Source: an uncultured bacterium
GTDB lineage: Bacteria; Acidobacteriota; HRBIN11; JAKEFK01
Direction of reading: 5' to 3'
DNA: 64,000 bases
Assembly (NCBI GenBank): GCA_963777505.1
Contig: CAVZQN010000007.1
Location: 138,452-202,451, forward strand
Shown one piece after another: positions 4,112 through 60,881 of the stretch. The notes under the pieces are model-generated. The model did not search any database. It was not told where the DNA came from and saw nothing but the letters and a program-made list of their open reading frames with translations. Position 1 is the first letter of the stretch. Each line of letters begins with the position of its first letter. The position numbers were made by a program, and so were the translations under genes.

Positions 4112-4705
4112 CTAAAGATTCGCTTTTTCAACAGTGATCTTGCTGTCCTTGGCGCGGGTAGCCTTCACGAAATAAACGACGAACTCTTCCGGTTCGAGAA
4201 GATAGAAGCTGACAACTTTGTTGCCTGCATCATCACTTAATTTCGGCGGCATGAATTCCTTTTCAGCTTTCTTGATCAAATCCATCGCACCAATGTTCCG
4301 TTTTGAATCGGTCAGCACCATTCCCGCGCCTAGATCTTTATGAAAACGGGTAATGATTTCTGCCCACCATGCAGCCGGCGCATCCGCACCACAAGCGTCT
4401 AGAATTCTGGATACGGCACCATTATCCGAAACGCTCAATATTGTGTCACCGGATAACAATGCGTAATTGAGTTGATACGAAAGTGGCCGAACATTATGTC
4501 CGGCTGTATAAAACGAACAGGAACCGTGTCGAAGATTTTCGACTTCATCAACTCGAACCTCATCAACCTTCCAGGCATGTTCATCGTGCACTTTGTTTGC
4601 GATTTTTAGACGAATGCTATCATCCATTTTGTTATCCTCCAGATTTGCCGTGCCGAAACTTAAAGCAACGACCACCGCAAATAAGGTTATTTGCATCAGA
4701 TTCAA
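4112..4705 (-). CDS. Exported hypothetical protein; candidate immunity/partner of the upstream metallopeptidase
   Basis: 197 aa, N-terminal signal peptide (ITLFAVVVALSFGTA), 4-bp overlap with stop of 4702..6621. Confidence 0.6.
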   Translation of the reverse strand: MNLMQITLFAVVVALSFGTANLEDNKMDDSIRLKIANKVHDEHAWKVDEVRVDEVENLRHGSCSFYTAGHNVRPLSYQLNYALLSGDTILSVSDNGAVSRILDACGADAPAAWWAEIITRFHKDLGAGMVLTDSKRNIGAMDLIKKAEKEFMPPKLSDDAGNKVVSFYLLEPEEFVVYFVKATRAKDSKITVEKANL

Positions 4706-6621
4706 TGGTTATCAAGATTTCCGCTAGGCAGTGGAGCCGGATCATTAGGCTTAGCCCATGTTGATGGATCCTCTGCAATCACAGTGTTCCAGTTACTTGC
4801 ATCTACTTTTTTACCGCTCATCTTGCTTAATAAGTCGTAAAATTTAGCTGCCTCTGCCGGGTCCTTCAACGCTTCCTTAGCGTATTTACCGTAAAAACTG
4901 CTGGGATCAAGCTGCCATGAAATACGTTGCTTCATCGCTTCTTCGTTTGTTGGCACTCGACCATAGCGCGCCTGGAATCCAACATGCCACGCACGATATT
5001 CCGCTTCGAAATATTTATATGTCTTTGCAACTTCATCCTTATTCAGAATATGGCTAACTTCATGCGGCATCGTAGAAAGAACCATATGCTGCGTCTTCAC
5101 GTTTTCAACCATCTTGTTGTTATCGGCTGCAATAAATCCTTTATTCAGCGAAATAGTCTTCGTGTCATGATCACCTTCACCATGGGTGTTGTCGGTGTAG
5201 CTCTTCCATTGAAGTTTAAAGTCGGATTTTGGATCGAGCAACTTGTTGAGTGTGTTATCAACAATTTTACGATCTCCCGCATCATATGAAGAAAGATAGC
5301 CCACCATTTTCAGCGATCGCTGTTTATCACCAAGATCCTGTCCGGTGAACCATTCCTTTTGCAGCATCCGTTGCGTGTTGGCAACTGCACGCGCATCCGG
5401 ATAATTCTTCACCTGACTGAGCACAGCAGTCTTTTCTTCGGGCTTGAGTGCTTCAAACTTCGGATCAGCAAGGAGATTTTTTACGTTTTCTGAATACTTC
5501 GGATCAGCTTTAGCCCCTGCCAGTCCTTCAGTAACTAATGCTTTATTTGCATCGGTTAATTTTGTAAAGCCAGGTGAACCGATCAGATTTAAAGTGTTAT
5601 CCACTTTCTCAGTCGTAGTTGGTGGATTCTTCGCAATCGTATCAACCACTGAATCTTTGACTTTATCGTTTGAATTTCGGAAAGCCGGACTCCCAGCCAT
5701 TTTTCCGAGACCTTCCGCAAGCTGTGCATCATCCGGACGCGTCTTCAACGCACCCATCATTTTGTTCTGCGTGTCATTCGAAAGCTGCTCAAAACCTTTG
5801 GATGTTGCGAGCTTTGTCAGATTGTCGATTTTTCCCGGATCACCGGCATACCCTTTCACCTGGTTCAGTACTTCTGTTTTTGTTGCATCGTTTAGCTTCT
5901 GAAATGTTGCATCATTGGCGAGAGTACTTAATTGCGATGTGAACTTCGCGTCATCCGGACGCGCTTTCTGCATGTCCAGCATTTGTTGCTGATGAGCGGT
6001 GGAAAGATTGGATAATCCTGGACTTGTAGCGAAATTACGGAGGTTTTCTACTTTCGTTTTATCCTGATCATATTCAGTCATCAGCTTGCGCGTCTGATCT
6101 TTGATTCCGGGATCAACTTTTTTGAAATTCGGATCGTTTTCCAAAAGGACGCGGTTCTGTGTTGCGACCCCTGCATCACCGTCTTTCTTCAACCCATTTG
6201 CTTTCTGGAATTCTTCGACCGCTTTCTCCGTTTTTGGCCCGAAATATCCATCTTCTTTAACCGGGTCCTTGCCGTTTTCGGTGCGCCACTGATTTACTTG
6301 CTTTTGGAGTTCCTCGACTTCCGGTTTAGGCTCTTTCTGATTATCATTGCGTTTTAATACTTCATCCGTAGGAAGTTTCGGAGCTTCAGCCTCTTTATTG
6401 AAGCCAACGAACTGGGCTGCACGCGCCATTCCTGATAAAGCAAACTCGCTAAACTTGCTAGTTTGCCCTTTCTGATCAGTCGGAATAGACGGTGCAGGGC
6501 TGTCGGCTGGTGTCGGAGTGCTTGTTTTTGTTTCGGCCGGCTTCGTTGTGTCTACACTGCTTGCCGCATCGGTTTGTGGAGACTGAGGCGGCGGTGCGCC
6601 ACTTCCAATTTTGTCAACCAT
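4702..6621 (-). CDS. Putative secreted effector: disordered N-terminus, peptidoglycan-binding domain, helical repeats, C-terminal HExxH zinc metallopeptidase-like domain
   Basis: PG_binding_1-like VEELQKQVN...DGYFGPKTEKAVEEFQKANGLKKDGDAG; PHEVSH...EAEYRAW; no signal peptide; motif B FSEFALSGMARAAQF. Confidence 0.75.
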   Translation of the reverse strand: MVDKIGSGAPPPQSPQTDAASSVDTTKPAETKTSTPTPADSPAPSIPTDQKGQTSKFSEFALSGMARAAQFVGFNKEAEAPKLPTDEVLKRNDNQKEPKPEVEELQKQVNQWRTENGKDPVKEDGYFGPKTEKAVEEFQKANGLKKDGDAGVATQNRVLLENDPNFKKVDPGIKDQTRKLMTEYDQDKTKVENLRNFATSPGLSNLSTAHQQQMLDMQKARPDDAKFTSQLSTLANDATFQKLNDATKTEVLNQVKGYAGDPGKIDNLTKLATSKGFEQLSNDTQNKMMGALKTRPDDAQLAEGLGKMAGSPAFRNSNDKVKDSVVDTIAKNPPTTTEKVDNTLNLIGSPGFTKLTDANKALVTEGLAGAKADPKYSENVKNLLADPKFEALKPEEKTAVLSQVKNYPDARAVANTQRMLQKEWFTGQDLGDKQRSLKMVGYLSSYDAGDRKIVDNTLNKLLDPKSDFKLQWKSYTDNTHGEGDHDTKTISLNKGFIAADNNKMVENVKTQHMVLSTMPHEVSHILNKDEVAKTYKYFEAEYRAWHVGFQARYGRVPTNEEAMKQRISWQLDPSSFYGKYAKEALKDPAEAAKFYDLLSKMSGKKVDASNWNTVIAEDPSTWAKPNDPAPLPSGNLDNH

Positions 6622-6673
6622 GATGATACTCCAAGGGGTTAATTAATTAATTTTAACATACGCCCAATTAGGA

Positions 6674-6783: not shown

Positions 6784-7392
6784 TCAATCATCGTTTGGAA
6801 TTGCACCAAACTCTTTTAAGCGAATTTTTGCAGCAGCGCGGCTAACTCCGAAACGTTCCGTAACTTCGTTGAGTAATTTCTCCGTTTCGGATGGAGCGCT
6901 GGCATACTCCTGCATCAGCTCTGCAGGCATCAGAAGTTCGGCTGCAAATTGATTCGCGCGCACTTCAGTGTAATCCACCGCGTTTGTCTTTTGGATCTCA
7001 CCCGGAAAATCACGGCATGCAAACGAGACCTGATGTTTTTTTCGAAAGTCCCAATAATGGCCAAGCTCATGTGCTTTCGTAAAACGGCAAAAGCCTGCAT
7101 TGCCATTCTTTTCAGTAAAGATCAAACCATGTCCATTCTTAAAAAAAATGAAACCTGCCAGCGCTTCATCTGTATCGTCTGACCAATCATATTCAATCCC
7201 AATCTTGTTCAGGTAGGCAGAAACTCGACCGAATGTTAATTCTTCGAATTCAATTAATGAGATCGGATACAACAATTGAATAATGTCATCAAGTGGACGC
7301 GGAAATACATCGACAAATTCTGGAGCAAGGCGCGCGAGGTCATACAGCAATTCATCGACACGTCTTTGAGCGATACGGTGTTTGCGTTCCAT
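6784..7392 (-). CDS. ImmA/IrrE family zinc metallo-endopeptidase
   Basis: RFTKAHELGHY ... EVRANQFAAELLMP ... FGVSRAAAKIRL. Confidence 0.9.
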   Translation of the reverse strand: MERKHRIAQRRVDELLYDLARLAPEFVDVFPRPLDDIIQLLYPISLIEFEELTFGRVSAYLNKIGIEYDWSDDTDEALAGFIFFKNGHGLIFTEKNGNAGFCRFTKAHELGHYWDFRKKHQVSFACRDFPGEIQKTNAVDYTEVRANQFAAELLMPAELMQEYASAPSETEKLLNEVTERFGVSRAAAKIRLKEFGAIPNDD

Positions 7393-7393
7393 T

Positions 7394-7864
7394 TTATTTC
7401 TGTGGTTTCTTACGAGCTGCTTTCCGGATAACCGTTTCTCCAGATGACATCGAATGCAGCACGATTGCGCGCTTCAATATAGTAAAGAGCGGACGCAGAC
7501 TGAATTGCGGATGCTCTTTCACGAACTCGGTACAAAATTCAAATAACGTCTTGTCCTTGACTGGCTCTAGACTCCCCTGCAGCACTCTTACATCACGAAC
7601 ACTAACACCCAGTTCTTTTGCCGCGTCATGATCTGATTTTTGTTCAGCACTCATAATAAAGCTCAAATGATATCCTGCAGTTCCTGGAATTCCGGAGGCA
7701 AGCTTAGAAAGATTCAGTGTACCTTTACGAATATTGTAATCATGAATAGCGATCAGTGTTTCTTCAGATGGAATATCTTTCGCATTCTCTTTGAGCAATC
7801 GGCTAAATCCTGATTCTGTTTCAAGAAAATGTTTCTTTGAGGATCGCTTTTTTTCAGGACTCAT
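7394..7864 (-). CDS. Hypothetical protein between sigma factor and ImmA/IrrE peptidase (possible HTH/anti-sigma substrate)
   Basis: 156 aa, translationally coupled to both neighbours; HTH-like DAAKELGVSVRDVRVL; C-terminal KAARKK. Confidence 0.6.
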   Translation of the reverse strand: MSPEKKRSSKKHFLETESGFSRLLKENAKDIPSEETLIAIHDYNIRKGTLNLSKLASGIPGTAGYHLSFIMSAEQKSDHDAAKELGVSVRDVRVLQGSLEPVKDKTLFEFCTEFVKEHPQFSLRPLFTILKRAIVLHSMSSGETVIRKAARKKPQK

Positions 7865-8418
7865 CGAATAGATCCTCCGGCTTCAATTGAAGTTCTTTTG
7901 CGATCCGGACGACTTCCGTTTTCAGCGTACGCTGAAGGTATTGCACCCGCATGACTTTTATCTCCAGTATTTCGGATATTTCTTTTGCTGAATATCCTTG
8001 CGATGTGAGCTCAAAAATGGTCCGCATTGGAGGCGGGCCTCTTTCCGCCAGATAACGCCAGCAGCAGTTTTTCTCGATTTTGTGCTTGAGGCGTTTCGAT
8101 TCCAGACTTCCCTTCGATGCTCACATCTTCTGCATCTATATGGATATACGATTTCCGCTGCTTCCTTTTGCGAAGTTCATCATGGGCTCGAAAGGAAGCC
8201 TTGCGTACCATCCATGAAATCAAAGGGACGCCTCGTGAAGGATCGAATTTTGCTCCACCCTGGGAAAGTTCTTCTAACAAAGCCTGACTCGCAATTTCTT
8301 GCGCATCTGCCTGATTGAATCCGTACTTGTGCATTATGTACGAAACCATGACGCCATAGGATTCATACAATTTGCCAATGTCCTCGTCCATCATCCAGTA
8401 GAGATTATATTTCACCAC
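7854..8418 (-). CDS. ECF-like sigma-70 factor, split by an indel near 8040
   Basis: Region 2-like DAQEIASQALL...FDPSRGVPLISWM in ORF 8011..8418; second frame continues PPMRTIFELTSQGYSAKEISEILEIKVMRVQYLQRTLK (region-4 HTH) to TGA at 7854. Confidence 0.75.
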
Positions 8419-9458: not shown

Positions 9459-10011
9459 ATGCAGATCAAGCGTCTGGAGCCAAGCTCCATTCAACAAAAG
9501 TCAACAACAGAAAACACAGAAACGAACTCTTCATCCTCAGTCAATTTGAACTCCGGAGTTGGCAACATAAAAGATGGTTTTGAACCACTAAAAGTAGATG
9601 AAGGATCAACGAGACCCTTAAAGCTCAATTTTGTAAAACAGCAAATGACTGCTTATATGAGTTCGAAAATAGCCACAAAGCGCAAACGATCCGATGTTTG
9701 CTGTCATGGACGAGTACTTAAAAATGAATGACAATGAAATTGGTTCGGCTCACGGCTCACGTGATATTTTTCAAACAGTAGATACCGACGCAACGTCTGA
9801 GCTTACACTTGGCCAAACCTCCCGCCTGAATCGAGGAAACGCAAGAAACCACGTTGATACGCAAGGCAAACCATTAAACGAACTAAAACAATCCGCAAGC
9901 GACATCAAAGAAACGCTACTTCAGAATGCCGGCCTTGATGAAGACAAAAAGAACGTAATGAACCGTTATGAAAGAATTTCTTTGTGGATCAGAGCCCGAG
10001 AAGACGATTAG
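9459..10011 (+). CDS. Putative type III-like export substrate, split by one extra A near 9677
   Basis: MQIKRLEPSS S/T/N-rich N-terminus, motif A GVGNIKDGFE; removing one A joins ORFs 9459..9731 and 9694..10011 (ATSANDPMFAVMDEYLKM...LDEDKK). Confidence 0.55.
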
Positions 10012-15742: not shown

Positions 15743-15774
15743 CGTTCACTCCCTTTTCCACCCGTCTTTATTAA
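15743..15774 (+). promoter_or_regulatory. Unassigned bipartite box CGTYCACT-N12/13-CGTCTTNNTTAA
   Basis: CGTTCACT-cccttttccacc-CGTCTTTATTAA, 48 bp upstream of ATG 15823; same box at 41591, 46004 and 46948. Confidence 0.6.
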
Positions 15775-15822: not shown

Positions 15823-17238
15823 ATGGGCGATCTAAAAGTATCTGGAAATGTTGTACATCAAGGAGCACCGAAAACTGTTGATGAGCAAGTGCTCGATATT
15901 ACCGAAAGCCGGACAATGCCGCCAGGCAAGAAATTAGATGAATTGGAAAACACCTTTAAAAATTTACCCGATGGTGAGAAGAAGGAACTTTACGATCGTT
16001 TGAAAACGAAAAATAGACAGGATCCTGTATCCCGTTCATTTCATTACCGGTTCGCCCATTCAGGAAGCCCGGGGAAACTTTCGGAAGTGGATCGTCTCCT
16101 CAATGCGTTAAAGCCAGATCATGCGAAAGTGCCGGACAATCCAGCTGCAAAAAGCGGTCAACCTCCGAAATCTCCAACGAAGGGTCCATCCCCTAACCCG
16201 ATCAGCGACAAAACTGCAAGAGCAATCCTGATTGATTTTAAACCGCAAGCTCAGGAAGCAAAGACCGACTTTGGACCTGAAATTCAGGTCATGTCTAAAG
16301 ACATCCTTAAAACTCCAGCCGAAAAAGTTCAATACGCCCGCGAACGTTTAGAAAAAGCGAGCAAAGATGATTTGAGAAAAATTATTACCGAATCACAAAA
16401 TTGGCCCGAAGACAGCAGACAAATAGTATCTGAAGCAATGGCTGGATCTACAAAAGTAATGGGACGTCTCGCAAAAGAATTTACTCCGGTCGAGGCAGAA
16501 AAAATTATTGAGCGAGCGAAGTATGATTCCAAAAATGTAGAACCTGATGCTGTAGCGAAAAATGCAAAAGGTCTTCGGGCGTGGATGGACAATGCTGATC
16601 CTGTCGCATTGAATGTTCTTATGAGTAAAAGTTCTATATTGCATTCTGAGATTGCGGAGCAGGTCAAGGCAAACGATCTTGGAGTGTTTCAAAAATTACC
16701 TCCGAGAAACAAAGGCGACATCATTCAATTTGGCGTTATGACGGGATCGGATATGACGAATGGTCTGCGTTCGATGAGACCCTCTGAAAAGAATTCCACA
16801 ATGGAACGGCTTCAACAAATGAATTTGACGGATAAATTTGTGAAAGCGAGCGGAGCGAACATCGATCAGCGCCTCCTGGATGGTATCGATATCGATAAAA
16901 AAACAAACTTATTTACTTCAGGTGCCAAGCAAGGCATTGATATGAGCCGCGGATTTCATGGAATGGATGCGTCAGATAAGAATGCTGTCTTTGATGCACT
17001 TCAAGCAAATAATGACACTCAAGTATTTCAGTCCTTTGTTAGAACAACGGCTCCTAAATTAGACGGTGGATTCTTAAAAGGTCTCAATTCTGAGAATGTT
17101 GAATCTTTGCGCAAGACATTACTTTTCCTTGGAGACGCAGCGAAGTTGAAGAACCAGACCGATCTCGCCATTCTTTACCAAGGTAAGGCGAATTATCTTG
17201 AAAACTGGGCTCAAGAAAACTTCAGGCGCCAGAAGTAA
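15823..17238 (+). CDS. Hypothetical helical protein, putative export substrate
   Basis: GGAGGAG RBS, MGDLKVSGNV start, no signal peptide, Pro-rich linker, duplicated C-terminal unit (GSDMTNGLRSM / GIDMSRGFHGM). Confidence 0.65.
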   Translation: MGDLKVSGNVVHQGAPKTVDEQVLDITESRTMPPGKKLDELENTFKNLPDGEKKELYDRLKTKNRQDPVSRSFHYRFAHSGSPGKLSEVDRLLNALKPDHAKVPDNPAAKSGQPPKSPTKGPSPNPISDKTARAILIDFKPQAQEAKTDFGPEIQVMSKDILKTPAEKVQYARERLEKASKDDLRKIITESQNWPEDSRQIVSEAMAGSTKVMGRLAKEFTPVEAEKIIERAKYDSKNVEPDAVAKNAKGLRAWMDNADPVALNVLMSKSSILHSEIAEQVKANDLGVFQKLPPRNKGDIIQFGVMTGSDMTNGLRSMRPSEKNSTMERLQQMNLTDKFVKASGANIDQRLLDGIDIDKKTNLFTSGAKQGIDMSRGFHGMDASDKNAVFDALQANNDTQVFQSFVRTTAPKLDGGFLKGLNSENVESLRKTLLFLGDAAKLKNQTDLAILYQGKANYLENWAQENFRRQK

Positions 17239-17256: not shown

Positions 17257-18105
17257 CTATTCGTCAATGTTCTTATGAATGATCGGATTAAACGGAATTG
17301 CAGCTGGGGCGCTCTCCATCTGAGTCAGATCTTGATTGGATAAACCCTCTTGCCAAGCTTGTTCGGCAACAATTGCATCTGTAGTCGTCATCGGATCACG
17401 AGTCTGAGAAGGCTGAGCTTCTTTCGCTTGCCGCTCCTTTTCTTTCGCAATCTGCTCAGAGACGGAATTCATTTCGCTTTGTACTTCTTCCAGCTGTGAA
17501 TTCAATGACTCGATATTGGTGTCTATTTCTCCGATCTTTCGCTCCAGATCAGTCTTGATCTTTTGCAACTTTTGCTTGTATAGAATTTCTAGGCCTACAA
17601 CACCAGGAATGATGGGCAGGTCAGCAATCATCCCAACAATTCCTATTGGTTCCAGTAGTTTACGTAGTTCATCAGTAATCGGTAGATTTGAGTTGATCAT
17701 CTCCATTACTGAGGCAAGGGCTTTTTGAGCTTTTAACTTCTCGCCTTCTGCAACCTCGATTTGTGATTGAAGGTCTGCGCTTCTTTCATTTAGAGCATTC
17801 AAACGGTCCATTAATTGAGGTAAACGATTATCGAGTTGACCTACACTCGGCTCATAAGAACTAAACAGAGAGGAAGCTTCCACGGTAATATCTCGAGTTT
17901 GAGAAGGCTGGATTAAAGATGCACTCTGGGCTTGCTCCTCGAGATAATAGAAATTCTCAGGAGCAGCCTCAAACTGATCTGCGGTTTTCGCAATACCAAA
18001 ATTCGGAATTAGTGGAGTCTGAATTTGGACTGGACTTTCAGTTTGCGGATTTTGATTCACATCGACTATTACAGAATTTGGCATCCTTCTACTGATGAAA
18101 CTCAT
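17257..18105 (-). CDS. Coiled-coil protein with central hydrophobic hairpin (translocator-like), putative export substrate
   Basis: GGAGGAG RBS; motif A GIAKTADQFE; two coiled coils flanking LLEPIGIVGMIADLPIIPGVVGLEILY. Confidence 0.6.
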   Translation of the reverse strand: MSFISRRMPNSVIVDVNQNPQTESPVQIQTPLIPNFGIAKTADQFEAAPENFYYLEEQAQSASLIQPSQTRDITVEASSLFSSYEPSVGQLDNRLPQLMDRLNALNERSADLQSQIEVAEGEKLKAQKALASVMEMINSNLPITDELRKLLEPIGIVGMIADLPIIPGVVGLEILYKQKLQKIKTDLERKIGEIDTNIESLNSQLEEVQSEMNSVSEQIAKEKERQAKEAQPSQTRDPMTTTDAIVAEQAWQEGLSNQDLTQMESAPAAIPFNPIIHKNIDE

Positions 18106-18179
18106 TTGTTCTCCTCCATATTGGTAACGCACAGATTTGCGTTAAACTCCCCAAAAATTCATGTGCATTTGAATGGTGG

Positions 18180-27012: not shown

Positions 27013-27582
27013 ATGGCATCGGATGGAATAACAAAACTGATCAAGGTCACACAACAGAAGTCGACAAACGCGAATGAAGAAGCCTTAGAAGGGGCGGCAA
27101 ACCAGCGATCTAATATAGATAAGCAAAAATCGCTAAGAGATGTACAGAAAACCCTCGATTCTTTTACGCAAGACTCCTCGATGTCGCGAGCTGATACCAA
27201 GGCAACTGCGAAACCCGGTGCGAATTTGAATTCAGGCGCCATTGCCTCAGAAGCTTCCGTTTCTAAGCCCGCAAGCTATCTCACAAGATTTTCGAAATCG
27301 GGCTTTGAGAAGTCCAGTCTGTTTTCAGCAGCCGGGTTAGCAAAAAATCTAGTCGATGTTCGCTCCAGCCCCACACATTACGCCAGCGGACTCAATGCCT
27401 TTGTGAAAGCACTCAGGGAAAGGTTTGAGGAATCAACCAAGGACCTTGAAGGAAAGGATAAACTGGGAAATTTTGAGATTAATAACTTGCTGAGCGTTTT
27501 CAATCAAGCGGAAACTCTGGCAGCTAGCACGAAAAAGAAGACCGATGATCAAAACGGTTCTGTAGCCGGGAAGATAGGATGA
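27013..27582 (+). CDS. Putative T3SS-like substrate with needle/translocator-like C-terminal helix
   Basis: AGGAGG RBS; S/T/A-rich N-terminus; C-terminal DKLGNFEINNLLSVFNQAETLAASTKKKTDDQNGSVAGKIG; overlaps chaperone gene by 4 bp. Confidence 0.6.
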   Translation: MASDGITKLIKVTQQKSTNANEEALEGAANQRSNIDKQKSLRDVQKTLDSFTQDSSMSRADTKATAKPGANLNSGAIASEASVSKPASYLTRFSKSGFEKSSLFSAAGLAKNLVDVRSSPTHYASGLNAFVKALRERFEESTKDLEGKDKLGNFEINNLLSVFNQAETLAASTKKKTDDQNGSVAGKIG

Positions 27583-28022
27583 CCGAAAAAAACCAACGAC
27601 AGGAAAAAAACCAGAGCGGTGAACAAGTATCTTCCGAAGCGCTTGCATCGGCCCTTCATTTTGCTCTACTTCATGAAGAGAACGGCCAGTACGATACTGC
27701 TGTAGCCGCTTTCAAATCCCTTCTATTGATGGATCCGTTAAATCCTTATTTTCACGCGATGCTCGGCTCGATCTATCAAAGGCAAGGGGATTATGAAAGC
27801 GCCATCCAACAATACACGGAAGCACTAAAAATATTTCCATCTGATATAGACTCGCTTACCAATCTCGGTGAGATACTGCTGAAGATAGCACAACCCCAAA
27901 GAGCTATACAGTGTTTAAAACAAGCAGTGGAGATAGATACAGAGGGGAATCATCCCTCCGCGAATCGTGCCCGACTTATGTTGTCCCGTTTACTAGAAAC
28001 AGTCGATCCAACTTCCAAGTAA
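27579..28022 (+). CDS. Small TPR protein resembling SycD/LcrH class II T3SS chaperones
   Basis: 147 aa, three TPRs (GQYDTAVAAFKSLLLMDPLNPYFHAMLGSIYQRQG...), terminal HPSANRARLML helix, coupled to upstream substrate-like gene. Confidence 0.65.
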   Translation: MTEKNQRQEKNQSGEQVSSEALASALHFALLHEENGQYDTAVAAFKSLLLMDPLNPYFHAMLGSIYQRQGDYESAIQQYTEALKIFPSDIDSLTNLGEILLKIAQPQRAIQCLKQAVEIDTEGNHPSANRARLMLSRLLETVDPTSK

Positions 28023-38720: not shown

Positions 38721-39239
38721 ATGCAGATCAAAAAATCAAACGGAATTAGTGTTTCTCAAACTATTGAGACTCACAATTCCACGATTGAAAAAAAACCGGG
38801 CGTAAGTGTAGGTATAAGTTCGATTCCAGATTCTTTTGAATCGGCTTCCAGTAAGTCCTCTAACGGAAAAACAAATTCAACATCGTCTGCACATCAGCGA
38901 TTTGAAGTTTCACAGCAACCAAACCTGAAGGACACCCTTTTTAATGCGTTTCGTCAGTCGATTAGCGAAACGAATGAAGACAAAAAGGATTATCTGGAAA
39001 AATTGCAAGAACAGAATCAAACGGCGAACGAACTTAGCGAATATTTGGAAGAACTCACCAATCAATCACAGGATTTGCAGAATAAGGAAAATTCAAAAGG
39101 CTCAGAGCATTCAGAGCCAAAACCTATAGCCGCTACAAATCAAAATGCGGACCTCTTAGAAGCAGTTGCAAGAAGAAATAGTGAATCTAATGACCTTGGC
39201 AGCATTAGAAAGACTTCCAAAAAGGAAGAACGACATTAG
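38721..39239 (+). CDS. Putative T3SS-like export substrate with coiled coil
   Basis: AGGAGG RBS, MQIKKSNGIS start, motif A GISSIPDSFE, FRQSISETNEDKKDYLEKLQEQN coiled coil. Confidence 0.7.
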   Translation: MQIKKSNGISVSQTIETHNSTIEKKPGVSVGISSIPDSFESASSKSSNGKTNSTSSAHQRFEVSQQPNLKDTLFNAFRQSISETNEDKKDYLEKLQEQNQTANELSEYLEELTNQSQDLQNKENSKGSEHSEPKPIAATNQNADLLEAVARRNSESNDLGSIRKTSKKEERH

Positions 39240-43028: not shown

Positions 43029-43183
43029 AGGGCATTGTGCGGGGATCTCGAGGATACGATCAGATCAGAATGCGTTTTGTTTTTTGCGAATCGGCAAAAA
43101 TTTGCCGTTTGGCAAATTCTTGCTTTTACACCCGCTTTTTGAGGGCCAGTTTTTACTGCGAGCTCTAATTCAGTAGCAGGAAC

Positions 43184-43216
43184 GAGCGCGGGCTTAGGTT
43201 TTGTAAGCCCGCGCTC
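43184..43216. repeat. GC-rich inverted repeat (terminator or REP-like)
   Basis: GAGCGCGGGCTTA-GGTTTTG-TAAGCCCGCGCTC just after stop of 43225..44685. Confidence 0.5.
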
Positions 43217-43224
43217 TAAAAAGA

Positions 43225-44685: not shown

Positions 44686-44789
44686 GACCCACCTCCGTTC
44701 TATTTATTTAACCGCAGAAAAACATTTGGATAAAGAACATATTCCAATATATATAAGGAAGCTTTCTGCGCCTTCCTCCCCACAAAGCC

Positions 44790-45130
44790 ACAAAGTTATC
44801 TTTTCTCTGAGGAAGGCAGTAAAACGCGGATCCTTTCTAATGTTACGCAAAAGCGGATCTCCTTTCATTTCGGATAATCCACCATCACGTTGGACGTATG
44901 CGCGTTCCAACCATTCGAATGCTTTATCTGTCTCACCGCGGTAGGAATATACACTAACAACTTGATACGCTGAATCACCTTGGTATTTTTGGATCAGTTC
45001 TGCTAATGCGGCATCCGATTCTTTTTCTTTCCCAAATCGTGATATGCGGATGCGAGGCCCGTCAATCGAAAAGCCATATCTGGTTCACGCTGCATTTCAT
45101 CCAATGCAGCTTGAGGTTTCGACTGCGCCA
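44790..45130 (-). pseudogene. C-terminal TPR relic of a kinase/adenylate-cyclase-TPR family gene (boundaries approximate)
   Basis: SAYQVVSVYSYRGETDKAFEWLERAYVQRDGGLSEMKGDPLLRNIRKDPRF, same family tail as at 32060-32190. Confidence 0.7.
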
Positions 45131-45279
45131 GGTACACGCAGCCAAGTATGTAATGATCGAAAGTATTATTTGAAATACGCGAGAAAATGTCGACGCAGAT
45201 CGGCAGAAAAAATGATTATTTTTGGGGGACAAAGAAAGGTTATGAGTTACCGATAGATATTCAACGGGGGGAGCAACTT

Positions 45280-45975
45280 TTACTTACGCGGTTTGATCAT
45301 TTTCTCCATTTCAGCACTTATGTTTTCAATATCCATCGTTGCTTGAGTCACTTGATTTTGAGTGTTAGCGGGACGCGTAGAGGTTTTACTTAATTCCAAT
45401 CTATCCTTAGCCTGCTTCAGTTGGACCCCTTGCCTATTTCGCGTGAGGCTCGCGGATTCTGCATCGAGTTGATCTGCTTGTGCGCGGCTTTTATTATCAT
45501 CCGGACCGCTATTCGCTCGAAGGTATTCCGCCCGCTTCTGAAAACTTGCACGAACGATATTTAGCGCGGGCCATCCGCCTTTAGTTCTTGCATCGCTTAT
45601 AGCTTTCTTCAATCCTTCCGGCTCTTCACCTGTGGCAACATAACGTTGTAGTTGCTCATTCGTAATCCCATACATCTTGAGAGCCTTCTGTAGAGCAGCG
45701 CCGTCGGATTTTGGTGTTTGATTCGTAGCACGAGTTGTCCCTGTAGAAATCTTTTTGTTTGTCTGGTTGAGCAATTGCGATTGAAGTTGATTCGCCGTTA
45801 TTCCTGCTTCAGCTTTACGTAAATTGGCGGCTTCAGGTTGAAGCTTTGGCGACGCGGCTTCCTGCTGAGAATTACCTACAGGATTTTTTTGGATCTTGTC
45901 TTCTGCTGATTGCGTATCGGATCCAGCCGAATCCGGAATCCGTACTAAACCGCGAATTGATAGATCATTGCTCAT
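45280..45975 (-). CDS. Putative T3SS-like export substrate, Q/A/K-rich helical
   Basis: GGAGG RBS, MSNDLSIRG start, motif B KAEAGITANQLQSQL, no signal peptide. Confidence 0.65.
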   Translation of the reverse strand: MSNDLSIRGLVRIPDSAGSDTQSAEDKIQKNPVGNSQQEAASPKLQPEAANLRKAEAGITANQLQSQLLNQTNKKISTGTTRATNQTPKSDGAALQKALKMYGITNEQLQRYVATGEEPEGLKKAISDARTKGGWPALNIVRASFQKRAEYLRANSGPDDNKSRAQADQLDAESASLTRNRQGVQLKQAKDRLELSKTSTRPANTQNQVTQATMDIENISAEMEKMIKPRK

Positions 45976-46065
45976 GAGCGACCTCCACAATGAACTTCCC
46001 TTGTTAACAAAGACGTGCGGCGTAGCTAGTGGACGAAGACGGCTTTTTTAAAATCATTTACTTCG
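45952..46065 (-). repeat. 114-bp promoter/RBS/first-codons block, copy 1 (contains CGTCCACT-N12-CGTCTTTGTTAA at 46004..46035)
   Basis: Near-identical to 46896..47009. Confidence 0.9.
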
Positions 46066-46188
46066 GGGACGCGACCGAAATGCGAAACCATTAATCGAAT
46101 TTCATCCCCGATGGCAAAATCCGACACACATCCTATACAGCCTGACTTATAGCCGGATTAGGAATCAACTTTCTCTGAATGGTAGTAT

Positions 46189-46488
46189 TTATCTGCTCCC
46201 CAAACGCTCCTTCTTTTTCCTAACTGGCACCAAGGAAAGTTTTTTTAGATCGACACGCGAAAATGTATTCTTTTCAAGCAAATTGGAATCAACCTTTAAA
46301 ACTTTCATTTCCCCTTTCGACGCAGTTGAGAACGATCGGGCGTGATTTCGCGCCTCCTGTTCGATCTCTGATTCTTGAAATATTGGTGCACCAGGCATTG
46401 AAATCACATGATGGATATGAAGAATTTTTCCCGTCTTTTTTTCATAAACGATAAAGGACTTATCCGTTTTTAGGATTTGTGGTGTCAT
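46189..46488 (-). CDS. Hypothetical protein
   Basis: MTPQILK...IVYEKKTGKILHIHHVISMPGA; starts 2 bp after upstream stop. Confidence 0.65.
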   Translation of the reverse strand: MTPQILKTDKSFIVYEKKTGKILHIHHVISMPGAPIFQESEIEQEARNHARSFSTASKGEMKVLKVDSNLLEKNTFSRVDLKKLSLVPVRKKKERLGSR

Positions 46489-53024: not shown

Positions 53025-53999
53025 ATGAACGTAAGAATATCAACTTCACTAACAAAACTTTTCACTGAACTACAGGAGTCCAGTGTGACCCCTGAAGTTT
53101 CGAAACCACAACTTAGCAATGTTCAAGAGGCTGCTGCAGCTGTAAGTCGAGTATCAACCGGCTTGGAATTTATTCAACAGCATGGCTTCGACTTTACCAG
53201 CACCGTTCAAAAAGCGTTGATGGAACGCTTGTCGATAGGTTTTGATAAAACAGCGACGAAATTTCCGAGCACTGAGTCGCCTCTTTTTGTAAAAGGTAAC
53301 GGTGATACGAACTCTGTAGATGGGAGTGATATAAACCAGCAAGGCTTGCGAAACTGCTGGCTGATGGCTCCGCTTGCCGCAATGGCGGAGAAGGATCCGG
53401 AAGCCATTAAACGGATGATCAAAGATAATGGTAACGGCACGTATACCGTAACATTTAAAGAAAAAATAATGACGAATCCTCCTGTTTATGTTGACAAACC
53501 GGTCACTGTTACGGCTGATTTTCCTGGTGGAAAAGCAGGTAACGGACATGCTGGAGCCGGAGATAAAGACCGTTTCGGAAAAGGAGAAATCTGGCCGTTG
53601 ATTATTGAAAAGGCTTGGGCACAAAAGAATGGTGGCTATGCTGCAATAAATAGCGGTAGGAATGCCAGAGAGTTTATGGAAGCCATAACCGGTCATTCGG
53701 CTACGTCCACTGTGCCCCAGCTAAAAGTTGGAACTCTTAATATCGGTCAGTCTTTTGAAGATCTAAACCGCGACTTCCACTCAGGAAAAAAGATTGTCAT
53801 GCTGTCGCGAGATAGTGTGAATGCAAAAGGTCTTGGATATGGGCTAGTCACGGACCATTACTATTCGGTACAAAACGTCTACACAGATGCGAACGGAAAA
53901 AAGATGGTTCAATTGAGCAATCCCTGGGGAAATACCCATCCTACACCGATTCCATATGAGGAGGCAGTCTACTATTTTGAACAAATTCTCACCGCTTGA
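53025..53999 (+). CDS. Calpain-like (C2 family) cysteine protease with disordered N-terminal extension; putative effector
   Basis: QQGLRNCWLMAPLAAMA (Cys), IWPLIIEKAWAQ, DHYYSV (His), LSNPWG (Asn); GGAGG RBS; no signal peptide. Confidence 0.85.
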   Translation: MNVRISTSLTKLFTELQESSVTPEVSKPQLSNVQEAAAAVSRVSTGLEFIQQHGFDFTSTVQKALMERLSIGFDKTATKFPSTESPLFVKGNGDTNSVDGSDINQQGLRNCWLMAPLAAMAEKDPEAIKRMIKDNGNGTYTVTFKEKIMTNPPVYVDKPVTVTADFPGGKAGNGHAGAGDKDRFGKGEIWPLIIEKAWAQKNGGYAAINSGRNAREFMEAITGHSATSTVPQLKVGTLNIGQSFEDLNRDFHSGKKIVMLSRDSVNAKGLGYGLVTDHYYSVQNVYTDANGKKMVQLSNPWGNTHPTPIPYEEAVYYFEQILTA

Positions 54000-54044: not shown

Positions 54045-55916
54045 TCAAACTTCCTTTTTTTTTGTCACCGATGAGAGATTGAAATTGCGAACAAGCCTAT
54101 ACAAGTGATTTGTATGCAGACCCAGGCGTGATGCTGCTTCGTTGTAGTTGCCTCCAGCAGTTTCCAATGCTTTTCGAATAAATTCTTTTTTGAAGTTCTG
54201 CAAGGCATCTTGGTATTCGCCTACTACAGTCGCATCTGAAGGGCGGCTCTCTAACAGAAGCTCTGGCAAATCGTCGGGATGAATCGTCTCTGAGGACCCG
54301 AGAACGATTGCACGTTCCATTGCATTTTGTAATTCGCGGATATTACCTGGCCAATTATAAGTTCGCAAAATTGTTTGCGCCTCCGGCGAAATTGCCTGGA
54401 AGGGGTGTCCTGCTTTAGTAGAAAAGTGGCTTGCGAAATAGCGAGCAAGCAGCAAGATATCTTCTTCCATCTCTCGAAGCGCTGGCATTTTCAGAGATAC
54501 CACGTTGAGTCTGTAAAAAAGATCGCTACGGAACGTTCCATCTTGCATGCATTTCCGCAGATCACGGTTGGTGGCTGCAAAAATACGAACATCTATCTTT
54601 GCCGGCCGAGACGACCCCACACGTTCTATCTGTTTTTCTTCAAGGACTCGTAAAACTTTTGCCTGCAACGTCAACGGCAATTCTGCAACTTCATCAAAGA
54701 ATAAAGTACCGCCTGACGCAGTTTCTATCTTGCCTTTCTTGGAGAAAATCGCTCCTTCGAAAGCGCCTTTCTCATATCCAAAAAGCTCACTCTCAAGTAG
54801 ATGATTCGGAATGGCCGCCCAATTAATTGTTACAAATGGATGGTTGGCACGCGAACTCTTGGAGTGAATCGTACGCGCTGCAAGCTCCTTTCCCGTTCCG
54901 CTTTCACCCGTGATTAATACACATGTATCTGTTCGTGATGTTTTTTCAATTACTTCACGAACTTTCCGGATTGCAGAACTCTCTCCAATAATCGGACTCT
55001 TCATCAGTAATTCTTTCTGAAGTACATCATTTTTGATGCGAGCAATCTCAAGGTCCTGAAGATTTTTCAGCGCAGGCGCTACAATCGTTGCAATTGAGCC
55101 GGCAAGACGAAGGTCTTCCTCGCGAAAAATTGCTGATCGACTGACAGTATCAAGATAGACAATACCCAAGGACGAATCATTCAATATAAATGGTACACAC
55201 AAGACCGATTGTGGGCGGTATTCGAGCAAGCTATCAGATTGGACCGGCGATTCAGCTTGCCCAATATCATTCAACAGGAGAGCTGTTTTCTCATCGCATA
55301 CTCGATTTGCGATCGTCCGGCTTACTCCTGCAGAATTTTTTTCGCCAGTTTTCGTTTTTGAAGCCAGCAACCGATAATCATCTACCGTATTCACAAGCAC
55401 GGAGCCTCTTTGTGCTGGAATGGAGGCAAATAGCAGATCCAAAAGCTTTTCTCCGAATTCTTCCAGCTTTTGCACCGATTGAACGGATTGACTGATGCGA
55501 AGCAGTAGACTCAATTCGCTAGTATTATTTGTTTCAAATGGAGTCGGTTGCCTGTGCATTGGAAGTGACAATGTAACTTTTGCGTTCAAGAGATCTTCAT
55601 CCGTACCATTTGATGGTGTCTCTTCTTCCTGCAAGGCGATCACAAATACAGAGCTTCCGATCTCAATTCGGTCTCCATGTTCCAGCAGACATTCTCCGAC
55701 CGGAAGTTCGTTCACAAAAATTCCATTCCGGCTTTGCAGATCGCAGATTTTATAGGCGTCAATCTCTTTGCGGATGACGCAATGACGACGCGATAATAGT
55801 AAGTCCTTGATGGGAACGGAATTCGTACGATCGCGTCCGATCGTCATCTCTGACTCACCCAGCGGAATTCTCTTGCCCTGTAATGGGCCCATCAAGGCCA
55901 CTAGAAAAGGAATCAT
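54045..55916 (-). CDS. FHA-GAF-AAA+-HTH sigma54-type enhancer-binding protein with GAFEGA loop
   Basis: FHA (IGR..SRRH..DLQSRNG), GAF (SVLCVP), GESGTGKE, ESELFGYEKGAFEGA, FRSDLFYRL, WPGNIREL, Fis HTH. Confidence 0.93.
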   Translation of the reverse strand: MIPFLVALMGPLQGKRIPLGESEMTIGRDRTNSVPIKDLLLSRRHCVIRKEIDAYKICDLQSRNGIFVNELPVGECLLEHGDRIEIGSSVFVIALQEEETPSNGTDEDLLNAKVTLSLPMHRQPTPFETNNTSELSLLLRISQSVQSVQKLEEFGEKLLDLLFASIPAQRGSVLVNTVDDYRLLASKTKTGEKNSAGVSRTIANRVCDEKTALLLNDIGQAESPVQSDSLLEYRPQSVLCVPFILNDSSLGIVYLDTVSRSAIFREEDLRLAGSIATIVAPALKNLQDLEIARIKNDVLQKELLMKSPIIGESSAIRKVREVIEKTSRTDTCVLITGESGTGKELAARTIHSKSSRANHPFVTINWAAIPNHLLESELFGYEKGAFEGAIFSKKGKIETASGGTLFFDEVAELPLTLQAKVLRVLEEKQIERVGSSRPAKIDVRIFAATNRDLRKCMQDGTFRSDLFYRLNVVSLKMPALREMEEDILLLARYFASHFSTKAGHPFQAISPEAQTILRTYNWPGNIRELQNAMERAIVLGSSETIHPDDLPELLLESRPSDATVVGEYQDALQNFKKEFIRKALETAGGNYNEAASRLGLHTNHLYRLVRNFNLSSVTKKKEV

Positions 55917-59156: not shown

Positions 59157-60827
59157 TCATTTTTTCTTCTTGGAAACTTTGTCCTGTTCTTCTTCCTCAT
59201 CATCTTTACTTTTTGAGCCTAACCCGATGAGCGGCGTTGCTCCTACGTTGATATTCATATCAGAAGGATCGCCTCCGCGAGTCGGCCCAGTGTAGCCATG
59301 ATTCGGAGAATCGGGACCAAAATCAACATCTCCACCACTCTGCGGTGACTCTGTAAATGTTCCGCCGCTGCCGCCAAACTGCACTGTCGTGTCGGGCTGC
59401 GCGATTAAGCCGTATTTTCCCAACTCCCCAAGATGGATTTGCGGGTCGTTGACAATCTGCCCTTTCGGCTCCGCCTGTTCCGCCGGGTCTACGTCCTCGC
59501 CGCCCTTATGCGGACCGATGGCGCGAAGGTCATTAACGAACTTCTGACTCTGTTGTTTGAGGGTATCCGGAATGTTGCCGTCGTAGTCTTCATAACCACC
59601 AGGGTCCTTGGTAGTCGCCCCAGTGCTCTGTCCACTCTCCTCCGTGCTCTGTCCATTCTGCGCAGCTTCCTTTTCTGCTTTCTTTGCTGCTCCTTTCTTG
59701 CGTCCTTCCTCGGCTTTTGCCTCTGTCTCCTCTTTGGTGTCCGTACCATCAGTGGCATCTGCAATGTCCTCACCCAACGATTGGCCGGAGACTGCTTCGT
59801 ACAATTTGTCAATGGCAGTTCCAACTGCAACCCCAGCTACCGCCGCGACTGCAACTCCTCCAACGGCCGCCACTGTTGCGGCACCCTCTGCCGCTACTGC
59901 TGCAGTTGCTGCTTCGGCAGCCGCTGCCTGCGCTGCCTCCGCACCTAAGCCAACGACTCGTGCGGCCCAAGCCGCTTGCGATGCCGCTTCTGCCGCCGCA
60001 ACTGCTGGTGCTGCAGCTGAAGCCGCCGCGGCTGGGATCCCGTATGCTCCTGCCCCGAATGCAGCCGAAGCAGCAAGACCGGCATTTTTGAGCGTCCCAT
60101 CCGCAATGATTTCTTTTCCGTACGATGGCGCATTGTTTACATGCTCGTTTGCAGAATCCAGAAGCGCGTTGCCTGTTGCGCCCTCTCTTAGTTCCTCTTT
60201 CGTCCTTGCCTGTCCCTTTATTCCTGGTAGCAATTCGGAGGAGTCACGTTGAGGAATGGAAAAATCTCCAGACACGAGCTGATTTACTACTTCGGAAACG
60301 TCAGGCCCTGTCGCTGCGCTTTGCTCTGGCGAGCCTTGTAAGCCCCGTTGAGAATTGAATTCTTGCTGCGGATCTTTTTTAGAATCGGATTTACCTCCCG
60401 GCTTCTTTTGATCTTTCTGATTTTCATAATTGGCTTTGCCATCGATCATCTGGTACGCAGAGCGATTGATATCAAAATTTGCATTACCTGCCAGCCGTGT
60501 TTCATCAAAACTTAACTCTTTGGAGCCTTTTTGTTCACTCGTTTTTGTCGATTGTGAATCGCGATTCTTAATAGCAGCATCGGCAGGCAGCATCGACTCC
60601 GAGGCAACTTTCAACTTTAGTCCTCCGGTCAGACCTGTCTTCTTGCGAGAGGCCTCGGATTGCTTGCTTTGATCCTCTTTGATGCTAGCCTTCGGCTTTT
60701 CAAAGCCATCCTTGATCTGGCTGATTCCTGATTCGACAGCCTTCGCCGTCTCTACTTTGTCAGCACTATTGTTCTGAGCGCCCGAAACCTTTTGAAGCAC
60801 TTCTCCTGATGTGTCCTTTATACGCAT
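59157..60827 (-). CDS. Putative translocator/pore-forming export substrate with about 95-aa Ala/Gly/Val-rich hydrophobic core
   Basis: GGAGG RBS, MRIKDTSGE start, motif A GISQIKDGFE, AGLAASAAFGAGAYGIPAAA...VAAVAGVAVGTAIDK, acidic/disordered flanks. Confidence 0.72.
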   Translation of the reverse strand: MRIKDTSGEVLQKVSGAQNNSADKVETAKAVESGISQIKDGFEKPKASIKEDQSKQSEASRKKTGLTGGLKLKVASESMLPADAAIKNRDSQSTKTSEQKGSKELSFDETRLAGNANFDINRSAYQMIDGKANYENQKDQKKPGGKSDSKKDPQQEFNSQRGLQGSPEQSAATGPDVSEVVNQLVSGDFSIPQRDSSELLPGIKGQARTKEELREGATGNALLDSANEHVNNAPSYGKEIIADGTLKNAGLAASAAFGAGAYGIPAAAASAAAPAVAAAEAASQAAWAARVVGLGAEAAQAAAAEAATAAVAAEGAATVAAVGGVAVAAVAGVAVGTAIDKLYEAVSGQSLGEDIADATDGTDTKEETEAKAEEGRKKGAAKKAEKEAAQNGQSTEESGQSTGATTKDPGGYEDYDGNIPDTLKQQSQKFVNDLRAIGPHKGGEDVDPAEQAEPKGQIVNDPQIHLGELGKYGLIAQPDTTVQFGGSGGTFTESPQSGGDVDFGPDSPNHGYTGPTRGGDPSDMNINVGATPLIGLGSKSKDDEEEEQDKVSKKKK

Positions 60828-60865
60828 GATTTGTTTACCTCCAAATCGCTCGCATCTTCCTATAT

Positions 60866-60881
60866 GGCAAACGGTGTGCCA
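60866..60881 (-). promoter_or_regulatory. sigma54 -24/-12 promoter
   Basis: TGGCACACCGTTTGCC, near-consensus, 38 bp upstream of ATG 60827. Confidence 0.85.

Follow-up and report, generated by a model that had tools for sequence, protein, structure and literature searches.

The final 64 kb of contig C7 (CAVZQN010000007.1) in assembly GCA_963777505.1, from an uncultured bacterium, carries 13 scattered genes whose products, on balance, we take to be substrates of this lineage's type III secretion system (T3SS), most likely with the secretion apparatus on a piece of the genome that was not assembled or not binned. We refer to this whole stretch of 64,000 nucleotides (G+C 0.43-0.48) as the window, to the assembly (5.23 Mb in 14 contigs, C1-C14; completeness 95.86%, contamination 0.92%) as this genome, or G000, and to each gene by the position of its start (Table 1). 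Our analysis supports the view that the candidate genes form a coherent, co-regulated set, free of signal peptides and equipped with T3SS-type accessories.

The starts given for the 13 genes in the initial annotation proved real: 11 were chosen independently by a gene caller that scores codon usage and Shine-Dalgarno (SD) sequences (4767 genes, 90% of the genome covered), most of them with GGAGG 5-9 nt upstream, and the remaining two belong to frameshifted genes. In gene 42984 the start (MFKVGINS) follows a GGAGG and the frame shifts past codon 20, leading to the open reading frame (ORF) 41724-42902; intact copies are found on contigs C12 and C13. Gene 9459 lacks an SD, and its paralogue at C4:597068 shows that it runs on, out of frame, in 9694-10011. 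These breaks are not peculiar to the candidate set, because non-effector genes of the window are split into adjacent ORFs too (19071-21894, 35167-38184, 31020-31972 and 10092-13075; two thermolysin-like M4 peptidases with a PA domain, a Ser/Thr kinase and a Reg_prop/Y_Y_Y histidine kinase), which suggests either frequent assembly frameshift errors or widespread pseudogenes. Window positions 32000-46400 share 92-99% identity with the small contigs C12 (23 kb) and C13 (18 kb), which may represent strain variants (haplotigs) and not true repeats.

None of the 13 products has a Sec signal, as originally stated. The maximum hydropathy over 11 residues within the first 45 amino acids was -0.30 to 1.00 in all of them, versus 2.73-3.40 in six signal-peptide proteins from the same window. 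Their N-termini were less uniformly rich in Ser, Thr, Pro, Gln and Asn than had been claimed: the fraction of these residues at positions 2-61 ranged from 0.25 to 0.57, with seven of the 13 at or above 0.42 (about the 98th percentile of the genome) and the others at 0.25-0.38. Genome-wide, 59 of the 4389 proteins of at least 90 aa reach 0.42 and lack a hydrophobic stretch, and 14 of these 59 are encoded on C7.

Two sequence modules recur at these N-termini. Module A consists of M-x-x-[KRP]-[IV]-G, 40-55 residues rich in S/T/P/Q, and the box E-x-x-[LI]-x-G-Q-x(5)-L, with Gly invariant; module B consists of MxI[KR], about 30-40 residues rich in S/T/N/Q, and G-[IV]-A-x-x-x-D-[SG]-F-E. Anchored profile hidden Markov models (HMMs; A2 HMM for module A, A1 HMM for module B, with a threshold of E<=0.01 for window genes) identified 19 matches to each module in this genome, at E 1.6e-14 to 2.5e-8 for B, and at 1.7e-18 to 5.2e-6 for 18 of the A matches and 0.008 for the last one. 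Every match lies at the start of an ORF, and the ORFs range from 94 to 725 aa. In a leave-one-out comparison with 200 composition-matched shuffles for each sequence, all shuffles were beaten by 16 of 17 N-termini for module B and by 15 of 16 for module A. Modules A and B are real, because left-out N-termini outscore their shuffles, and the motifs are therefore commoner than in composition-matched N-termini, contrary to a possibility that the initial annotation had raised against its own reading; since related paralogues share ancestry, the result reflects a shared module and not convergence. The anchored HMMs superseded two earlier attempts: a jackhmmer search from one module-A N-terminus, which stopped at two sequences, and a loose motif-A regular expression, which showed no N-terminal enrichment (33 matches in residues 20-110 versus 24 and 23 in later stretches). 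Across a library of 1.84 billion sequences, a module-A profile matched seven representatives at E<=0.001, some of them proteins of this genome; module A is thus rare, or too short for detection. The window candidates outside modules A and B share the composition and an extreme N-terminal signature, Ile or Val beside Lys or Arg within the first nine residues, which was defined post hoc and is present in 9 of the 13 window genes versus 1161 of 4767 genes overall.

The first residues of the leader are kept over long distances. The 6621 protein has 83 database homologues; among the matches listed, nearly all full-length ones begin with M-x-x-[KR]-[IV]-[GDE] and none has a hydrophobic signal, which was seen in three distant matches restricted to the peptidoglycan (PG)-binding domain. 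Two homologues of high G+C begin with MSSPKIGDP and MAPKIGPT, so that the first residues are kept and the spacer diverges. The titles of the records in which its closest homologues occur name Myxococcaceae and Myxococcota, and to judge from these titles the lineage is Myxococcota-like and not Acidobacteriota-like, as it had been described. The orthologue in a genome of the same genus (G001) is 82% identical and keeps both module anchors, with 74% identity of the DNA across the 6621 operon. Small proteins within the T3SS cluster of G001 start with MKIKGPGG and MVDPIISG, comparable to MVDKIGSG and MGGGPIGD in this genome, a likeness of few residues and weak as evidence.

Upstream boxes turned out to be slightly more frequent than first reported, with 10 instead of nine of the 13 window genes preceded by one of three kinds: a sigma54 -24/-12 box (22349, 38721, 42984 and 60827), a sigma28-like CCGATAA or GTGCGTTA (6621, 18105 and 53025), or CGTCTT-N(1-3)-TTAA (15823, 41556 and 45975). 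Genome-wide, the sigma54 pattern was found 42-63 nt upstream of 10 of 52 candidates versus 61 of 4715 other genes, [CG]CGATA[AT] (the core of the classical sigma28 -10 element) upstream of 7 versus 84, GTGCGTTA upstream of 5 versus 5, and the CGTCTT box upstream of 11 of 4767 genes, eight of which are effector-like; all patterns other than sigma54 and the GCCGATAA consensus were chosen after seeing the data, which flatters these ratios. Repeats of the TTTGGCAAA/TTTTGCAAA type precede the sigma54 boxes, 60-130 nt 5' of the start codon, at 22349, 42984, C5:135617, C6:217247, C6:267238 and C3:5856; they are likely enhancer-binding-protein sites common to the sigma54 subset. Genes for sigma54 enhancer-binding proteins with FHA or GAF domains lie beside effector-like genes at 54045-55916, C5:8316-10151 and C7:128396-129868. 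A search for 7-mers enriched upstream of the candidates returned weak T-rich words and nothing more.

One of the window genes, 27013, is paired with the gene of a tetratricopeptide repeat (TPR) protein, 27579-28022, which the initial annotation had likened to the chaperone SycD. This genome encodes three further paralogues (C7:85337-85810, C7:117676-118158 and C5:6212-6661), and three of the four TPR genes come after the gene of a small protein without Sec signal; the 12 remaining candidate genes have no adjacent chaperone gene. The four proteins match the two TPR proteins that flank the T3SS cluster of G001 at E 1e-21 to 1e-30, with 18 invariant columns, and for all six LcrH_SycD (TIGR02552) is the top NCBIfam match over the full length, at 62.7-69.8 bits for the four of this genome (69.6 for the window protein) and 81.7-85.1 for the two of G001. 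The latter lie within about 7 kb of sctV, a third TPR protein is encoded inside the cluster, and no such T3SS neighbourhood exists in this genome. An AlphaFold2 model of the window protein (pLDDT 88.8) has eight helices, and on this model the protein has the class II chaperone fold (about 150 aa, three TPRs and a capping helix). The highest query TM-scores in a fold search were those of PcrH (4jl0_A; 0.80 by query, 0.88 by target), IpgC (7axy_A; 0.76, 0.87) and SycD (4am9_A; 0.75, 0.83); designed consensus TPRs had better E-values. The one pair modelled as a complex, 27013 with 27579, scored 0.87 versus 0.00 for the best of three controls, passing a mark that solved complexes reached in 58 of 80 cases and mismatched pairs in 2 of 110; at least 42% of contacts were common between runs, and the partner pLDDT was at least 51. 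The tightest modelled contacts place client residues 83-93 in the concave face of the chaperone. V83 and P86 are invariant among four aligned clients, which yields the motif [AG]xVxxP; class II chaperones bind their clients by the rule P/VxLxxP.

The cargo carried behind the leaders largely agrees with what had been described: domains for PG binding with HExxH, calpain-like, RTX-like and hydrophobic regions were all found, and the L,D-transpeptidase-like identity of 15526 is the part that found no family match. The 6621 protein matches PG_binding_1 at E 1.7e-13 and has an HEVSH motif; four further PG_binding_1 proteins of its kind are encoded on C5 and C7 (five paralogues in total), and one branch of its homologues carries LysM. 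The 53025 protein matches Peptidase_C2 (calpain) at E 2.1e-20, and the repeats of 42984 match HemolysinCabind at E 0.0084 and the SMc04171 family at E 8e-15. Hydrophobic stretches rich in Ala and Gly are found in 60827, in its paralogue on C8, and in a 418-aa protein paired with a TPR chaperone beside the T3SS of G001, which hints that proteins of this type could be translocator-like clients. For 41556 no match was obtained in Pfam, NCBIfam or the PDB (the last at E<=1), and an atlas search retrieved only 'hypothetical protein' clusters (score 0.90, with recognition below the useful range). Among its C7, C12 and C13 copies, about 98% identical, dN/dS is 0.22-0.26, and for this reason we regard the candidate genes as maintained.

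The 15526 protein has no match in Pfam or NCBIfam at E<=0.01, nor a sequence match in the PDB at E<=1. An assignment as L,D-transpeptidase (YkuD) was rejected, with no match to the YkuD family and the H..SxGC spacing as the sole resemblance. It has 15 homologues, LysM-bearing proteins among them. Its residues 128-322 align to the non-XVIPCD part of an XVIPCD-domain protein from another phylum with 29% identity (E 8e-23 pairwise, 4e-13 in the database), and the H..SxGC motif is conserved in the homologous domain. XVIPCD is a tag on effectors of bacteria-killing type IV secretion systems (T4SS). The 15526 protein is not itself an X-Tfe effector: it contains neither XVIPCD (PF20410) nor any other Pfam family, the genome has no VirB4, and the enzymatic domain alone is common to both. 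By analogy, one enzymatic domain under different delivery tags argues for a polymorphic antibacterial effector logic, in which the N-terminal region would here be the delivery tag. The antibacterial role tentatively proposed in the initial annotation fits the PG-binding cargo and the X-Tfe-like domain, and as a role it is a prediction from the cargo sequences.

Close relatives of this genome have a T3SS. FHIPEP (PF00771; SctV/FlhA) is present in the same-genus G001, in five of six family genomes (the one without it is 73% complete) and in all six genomes of two sister families (f2 and f3), which makes 11 of 12 relatives within the class. Because FHIPEP is present and the flagellar rod proteins (Flg_bb_rod) are found in 0 of the 13 genomes of the clade, we consider the T3SS of this clade to be non-flagellar. 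The cluster of G001 contains, in order, a weak FliG-like gene, SctQ fused to FHA, FliO, a FliA/WhiG-type sigma factor (top NCBIfam match FliA/WhiG, 141.9 bits), two small ORFs, a TPR protein, two small ORFs, SctJ (TIGR02544, 141 bits), SctL, SctN, a YscO-like and a FliK-like protein, SctR, SctT, SctU and SctV, and it is flanked by two pairs, each of an uncharacterized protein and a SycD-like TPR protein. The genes that flank the cluster correspond to genes on scattered contigs of this genome (25-60% identity). Between a 106-aa ORF and a TPR protein of G001, where Ysc-type clusters have the needle gene, lies a 101-aa ORF (L019:10465-10770, minus strand) with a needle-like C-terminal helix pattern and no Pfam or NCBIfam match at E<=0.001; by sequence it is a lead, and only a lead, to a candidate needle in an otherwise 'needle-less' kind of T3SS.

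Among 40 relatives, modules A and B were found only in G001 (10 A, 6 B), G003 (11 A, 2 B) and G005 (3 A, 1 B), and FHIPEP/SctV is present in all three. The expected co-occurrence of motifs and export cluster thus holds for the module-bearing relatives, but not for eight T3SS-positive relatives without modules or for this genome without T3SS; the family comprises seven genomes, and kin are not independent. Four sequencing runs of one sample (X1-X4) contain 0.15-0.17 of the sampled words of the window, the share expected at about 5% divergence, and their contigs, at a depth of about 15-20, cover 23-28 of 30 bins of the G001 T3SS cluster at about 80-90% identity, the uncovered bins carrying no information. 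The small share of words in X5 (0.07) counts as no evidence. This fits the presence of the T3SS in a close relative of this genome.

Several observations weigh against the candidates being T3SS substrates. The assembly has no match to FHIPEP, Bac_export_2 (PF01312; SctU), FliP (PF00813; SctR) or YscJ_FliF (PF01514), and these models matched as expected in four flagellated reference genomes. The lack of any T3SS or flagellar export gate, which the initial annotation had itself named as telling against a T3SS, is therefore formally what this assembly presents. The proteins of the G001 cluster have no homologue in this genome beyond cross-family matches to FHA, ATP-synthase, sigma-factor and TPR proteins, and a FliA-type sigma factor was not found in the assembly, the best matches to its model being RpoD and an RpoS/RpoH-like factor. 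The contigs of X1-X4 are not assignable to this organism. As the T3SS-positive G002, G004 and all six f2/f3 genomes have no module match, the modules are no general requirement of the T3SS of the clade. Only six of the 13 window genes carry a module at the HMM threshold (A in 6621 and 41556; B in 9459, 18105, 38721 and 60827), not most of them, as had been stated. Among the TPR proteins, none of the six reaches the curated cut-off of TIGR02552 (104.8 bits), the best 60 entries of a PDB profile search started from the chaperone alignment were all generic or designed TPR proteins, and the score of the modelled complex may reflect memory of, or likeness to, solved class II chaperone-peptide complexes. 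The flattered promoter ratios count on the same side. What stood of the initial proposal of a T3SS-like substrate set is thus the coherent set itself, the SycD-like chaperones and the T3SS of relatives, while the core genes and FliA are absent from the assembly.

The same absence of every T3SS core gene searched would be expected if the leaders addressed another export route with no T3SS gate, a Tad/Kil-like or type II secretion system (T2SS)-like type IV filament machine or an undescribed one, served by the SycD-like TPR proteins. In this genome 12 genes for T2SSE-family ATPases score above cut-off and three secretins are present, the eight T3SS-positive relatives without modules point the same way, and the available text of PMC12075869 proposes that the Kil pilus may pass effectors on 'like a T2SS'. 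However, T2SS and Tad substrates normally cross the inner membrane via Sec or Tat, and the candidates have no such signal; moreover, the chaperone family is the one adjoining the T3SS of G001, SctV is present in three of three other module-bearing genomes, and the sigma28-type boxes fit the FliA-type sigma within the G001 cluster. We regard this explanation as unlikely, and a little less likely still its particular form in which a bipartite leader tags an undescribed Sec-independent route, maybe coupled to one of the type IV filament ATPase systems, that carries lytic enzymes to prey with the help of SycD-like TPRs. No other one-step machine was found: the assembly has no match to VipB, phage sheath, VirB4 or Peptidase_C39 (PF03412), which were searched as markers of a type VI secretion system (T6SS), a contractile injection system, a T4SS and a peptidase-containing ABC transporter (PCAT), respectively. 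The last of these was considered with module A as a double-glycine-type leader, cut and exported by a type I system or PCAT. The double-glycine consensus is E-L-x-x-I-x-G-G, which ExxLxG[QG] faintly resembles; several module-A members have GG at the box position, and RTX-like repeats occur in one cargo. Against it, E and I/L are spaced by three residues and not four, the second Gly is mostly Gln, the leaders span 60-80 aa and module B has no such box, all of which leaves this reading very improbable. Also unlikely is a targeting peptide for an encapsulin or phage capsid, or a Tat signal, given that the genes are dispersed over the chromosome, the cargo is extracytoplasmic, and the N-termini show no twin arginine followed by a hydrophobic stretch.

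A recent, true loss of the T3SS cluster and the FliA-type sigma would leave the arsenal, its chaperones and its promoters as an undecayed relic. The T3SS core and FliA are missing at a completeness similar to the 96% of G001, and two of the 13 window effector genes are frameshifted, but the splitting of the M4 peptidases, kinases and histidine kinase of the window points to sequencing errors or general decay, gene 42984 is intact on C12 and C13, the dN/dS of 41556 is low, and about 38 module genes and four chaperone genes are intact; we think such a loss doubtful. Finally, the proteins might not be exported at all but work inside the cell, for instance as regulators or bound to a scaffold; the modules would then head a family of paralogues with disordered linkers, and their likeness to type III secretion signals would be one of composition. 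Disordered N-termini rich in S/T/P/Q are unspecific to secretion, and 8 of the 12 scanned candidates have no Pfam family. Against this, PG_binding_1, LysM, Ca-binding repeats and the effector-type domain are extracytoplasmic modules, the same leader precedes unrelated cargo of 77-725 aa, as a targeting tag would, and 27013 is predicted to pair with the chaperone 27579, which makes an intracellular role improbable.

If the candidates are T3SS substrates, the mechanism could be as follows. An uncleaved leader, with a basic residue beside Ile/Val and often Gly or Ser thereafter (MxxKIG or MxIK), would act as the type III secretion signal, followed by a disordered spacer of about 35-55 residues rich in S/T/P/Q/N and, in many of the proteins, by a conserved box, which is ExxLxGQ(4x)L for module A and GIAxxxDSFE for module B. 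The proteins would leave the cell through an apparatus that the organism presumably owns, delivering a mostly extracytoplasmic or lytic cargo: PG-binding metalloprotease-like proteins, the H..SxGC domain, a calpain-like protease, Ca-binding repeats and hydrophobic Ala/Gly-rich proteins. The SycD-like TPR chaperones would hold a subset of them, through the [AG]xVxxP peptide bound in the concave groove. Three kinds of promoter would drive transcription: sigma54 promoters, which have genes for FHA/GAF enhancer-binding proteins in their vicinity, sigma28-like ones and the third box. No better mechanism is on offer, though this one rests on the relatives; the machine and the sigma factor are missing from this assembly. 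Should the leaders be address tags, about 45-55 proteins of this genome would make up a first catalogue of candidate effectors defined by sequence; its extreme N-terminal signature, which recurs in homologues from records titled Myxococcaceae or Myxococcota, would be a simple predictor, and the lineage would have a bacteria-directed T3SS with class II chaperones and possibly translocator-like clients. Type III secretion signals conserved in sequence would be unusual.

Table 1. Candidate effector genes, upstream boxes and associated genes in the window (SD, Shine-Dalgarno; HTH, helix-turn-helix)
Position (strand)	Feature	N-terminus and domains	Upstream element or gene context	HMM match
4112..4705 (-)	Small cytoplasmic-looking ORF		Start overlaps the stop of gene 6621; adjacency kept in G001 (L062:4917-5456)	
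4702..6621 (-)	Module-A protein, 639 aa	MVDKIGSG, S/T/P-rich spacer, helix FSEFALSGMARAAQF; PG_binding_1; C-terminal HEVSH (HExxH)	SD start	A2, 67.2 bits
6674..6680 (-)	Sigma28-like -10 element CCGATAA		59 nt 5' of the 6621 start	
9459..10011 (+)	Module-B gene in two frameshifted pieces (9459-9731, 9694-10011)			A1, 37.3 bits
14510..15526 (-)	Effector-like protein, 338 aa	MIPQTSK, S/T-rich spacer, YMEMGAEMMKDSLNRAL; C-terminal domain IHTG..SAGCQTI	SD start	
15823..17238 (+)	Orphan, 471 aa, without module	MGDLKVSG	CGTCTTTATTAA box 15763-15774	
17257..18105 (-)	Module-B protein, 282 aa	Coiled coil; single hydrophobic segment	GTGCGTTA box 18125-18132	A1, 57.1 bits
21978..22349 (-)	Small orphan, 123 aa	MIKGIRTG	Sigma54 box 22378-22392; TTTGGCAAA-type repeats upstream	
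27013..27582 (+)	189-aa protein; predicted client via residues 76-137, including ASVSKP 81-86		Translationally coupled to the TPR chaperone gene	
27579..28022 (+)	SycD/LcrH-like class II TPR chaperone, 147 aa; belongs to a set of four paralogues			
38721..39239 (+)	Module-B protein, 172 aa; near-identical copy on C13		Sigma54 box 38658-38672	A1, 54.5 bits
39682..41556 (-)	Module-A protein, 624 aa	C-terminal region without known family	CGTCTTCCTTAA box 41591-41602	A2, 53 bits
41724..42984 (-)	RTX-like Ca-binding repeat protein, frameshifted after codon 20	MFKVGINS	Sigma54 box 43014-43028	
45280..45975 (-)	Orphan, 231 aa	MSNDLSIRG	CGTCTTTGTTAA box 46004-46015	
53025..53999 (+)	Calpain-like cysteine protease, 324 aa	MNVRIS	CCGATAA 52944-52950	
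54045..55916 (-)	Sigma54 enhancer-binding protein; candidate activator of the sigma54 subset	FHA, GAF, AAA+ and HTH domains		
59157..60827 (-)	Module-B protein, 556 aa	Long Ala/Gly-rich hydrophobic region	Sigma54 box 60867-60881	A1, 46.7 bits

Several other genes lie among or beside the candidates. The small protein encoded next to 6621 at 4112..4705 has no Pfam or NCBIfam family, and could be an immunity protein or a chaperone. On the other side of the 6621 operon (6784-7864, minus strand) are an IrrE/M78 peptidase-domain protein (E 3e-13) and a small protein without family, and beyond them a 57-aa ORF and a fragment of sigma70 region 2 (8011-8418); the region 6784-8418 resembles a small cassette of regulatory or mobile type. 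An ATP-grasp ribosomal-peptide maturase (TIGR04187, E 3.7e-50; MvdC/MvdD-like) is encoded on the opposite strand (25881-26936, minus), immediately upstream of the 27013/27579 pair, which suggests a locus for a graspetide-type ribosomally synthesized and post-translationally modified peptide. At its beginning (3-4076, plus strand) the window encodes a PF07638-type extracytoplasmic function sigma factor and, after it, a large Ser/Thr kinase that contains TPR repeats, and a second PF07638 sigma is encoded at C7:93672-94256, directly downstream of three kinase ORFs (C7:85865-92648). At the contig end (61129-63961, minus strand), a superfamily-1 helicase (AAA_12/AAA_11) adjoins an RNase_H_2-domain protein, a pair that could be a defence or mobile-element module.

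Among the closest described systems is the non-flagellar T3SS* that Myxococcus xanthus encodes at mxan_2434-2464 and that works together with the Tad-like Kil pilus. The available text of two papers (PMC12075869, PMC10849154) describes it as devoid of secretin, needle and translocon and as needed for prey lysis, so that the system is not an undescribed one, as the initial annotation had suggested. The first paper speaks of 'potential T3SS effectors' that are not named in its available text, nor are any named in that of the second, and, judged from titles and abstract openings, we found no paper that reports T3SS* substrates. The T3SS* criteria (the sct core, no flagellar rod or hook genes and no secretin in the cluster) fit the cluster of G001; this genome has no core gene. 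M. xanthus belongs to the same phylum, to judge by record titles, the T3SS of the clade is likewise non-flagellar, and the published prey-lysis role fits the PG-directed cargo described here. In contrast to T3SS*, for which the available text names no substrate, chaperone or translocon, we find a candidate repertoire and SycD-like chaperones; G001 also has a putative ORF at the needle-gene position, and this genome is without apparatus.

The chaperones compare with the pairs SycD/LcrH-YopB/D, PcrH-PopB/D and IpgC-IpaB/C in being all-helical proteins, about 150 aa long, that contain three TPRs and a capping helix, with the chaperone gene coupled to that of the client, and with a client peptide, hydrophobic at position 3 and Pro at position 6, that is modelled in the concave groove. 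They differ in that four scattered paralogues occur here instead of one inside the T3SS cluster, in their scores below the family cut-off, in the 27013 client having no transmembrane hairpin, and in the apparatus being absent from this assembly. The promoters recall the cascade from sigma54 and its enhancer-binding proteins to FliA that governs flagella and injectisomes (sigma28 -10 element, GCCGATAA), given the sigma54 boxes with upstream repeats, the enhancer-binding protein genes nearby, the CCGATAA-type boxes and the FliA/WhiG-type sigma in the cluster of G001. Unlike that cascade, there is no flagellum, the sigma28-like boxes are degenerate (GTGCGTTA), a third box (CGTCTT..TTAA) occurs, and the cognate sigma is not in this assembly. 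MIX, FIX and RIX are N-terminal marker domains of T6SS polymorphic effectors, and the XVIPCD-tagged effectors and these share with the candidates the principle of one conserved tag on many unrelated toxic or lytic domains, as well as, in the case of XVIPCD, the domain of 15526. VipB and VirB4 were not found in this genome and 15526 has no XVIPCD; in contrast to those systems, the candidates have as their tag a short leader at the N-terminus that includes a disordered spacer, and its link is to a lineage with a T3SS.

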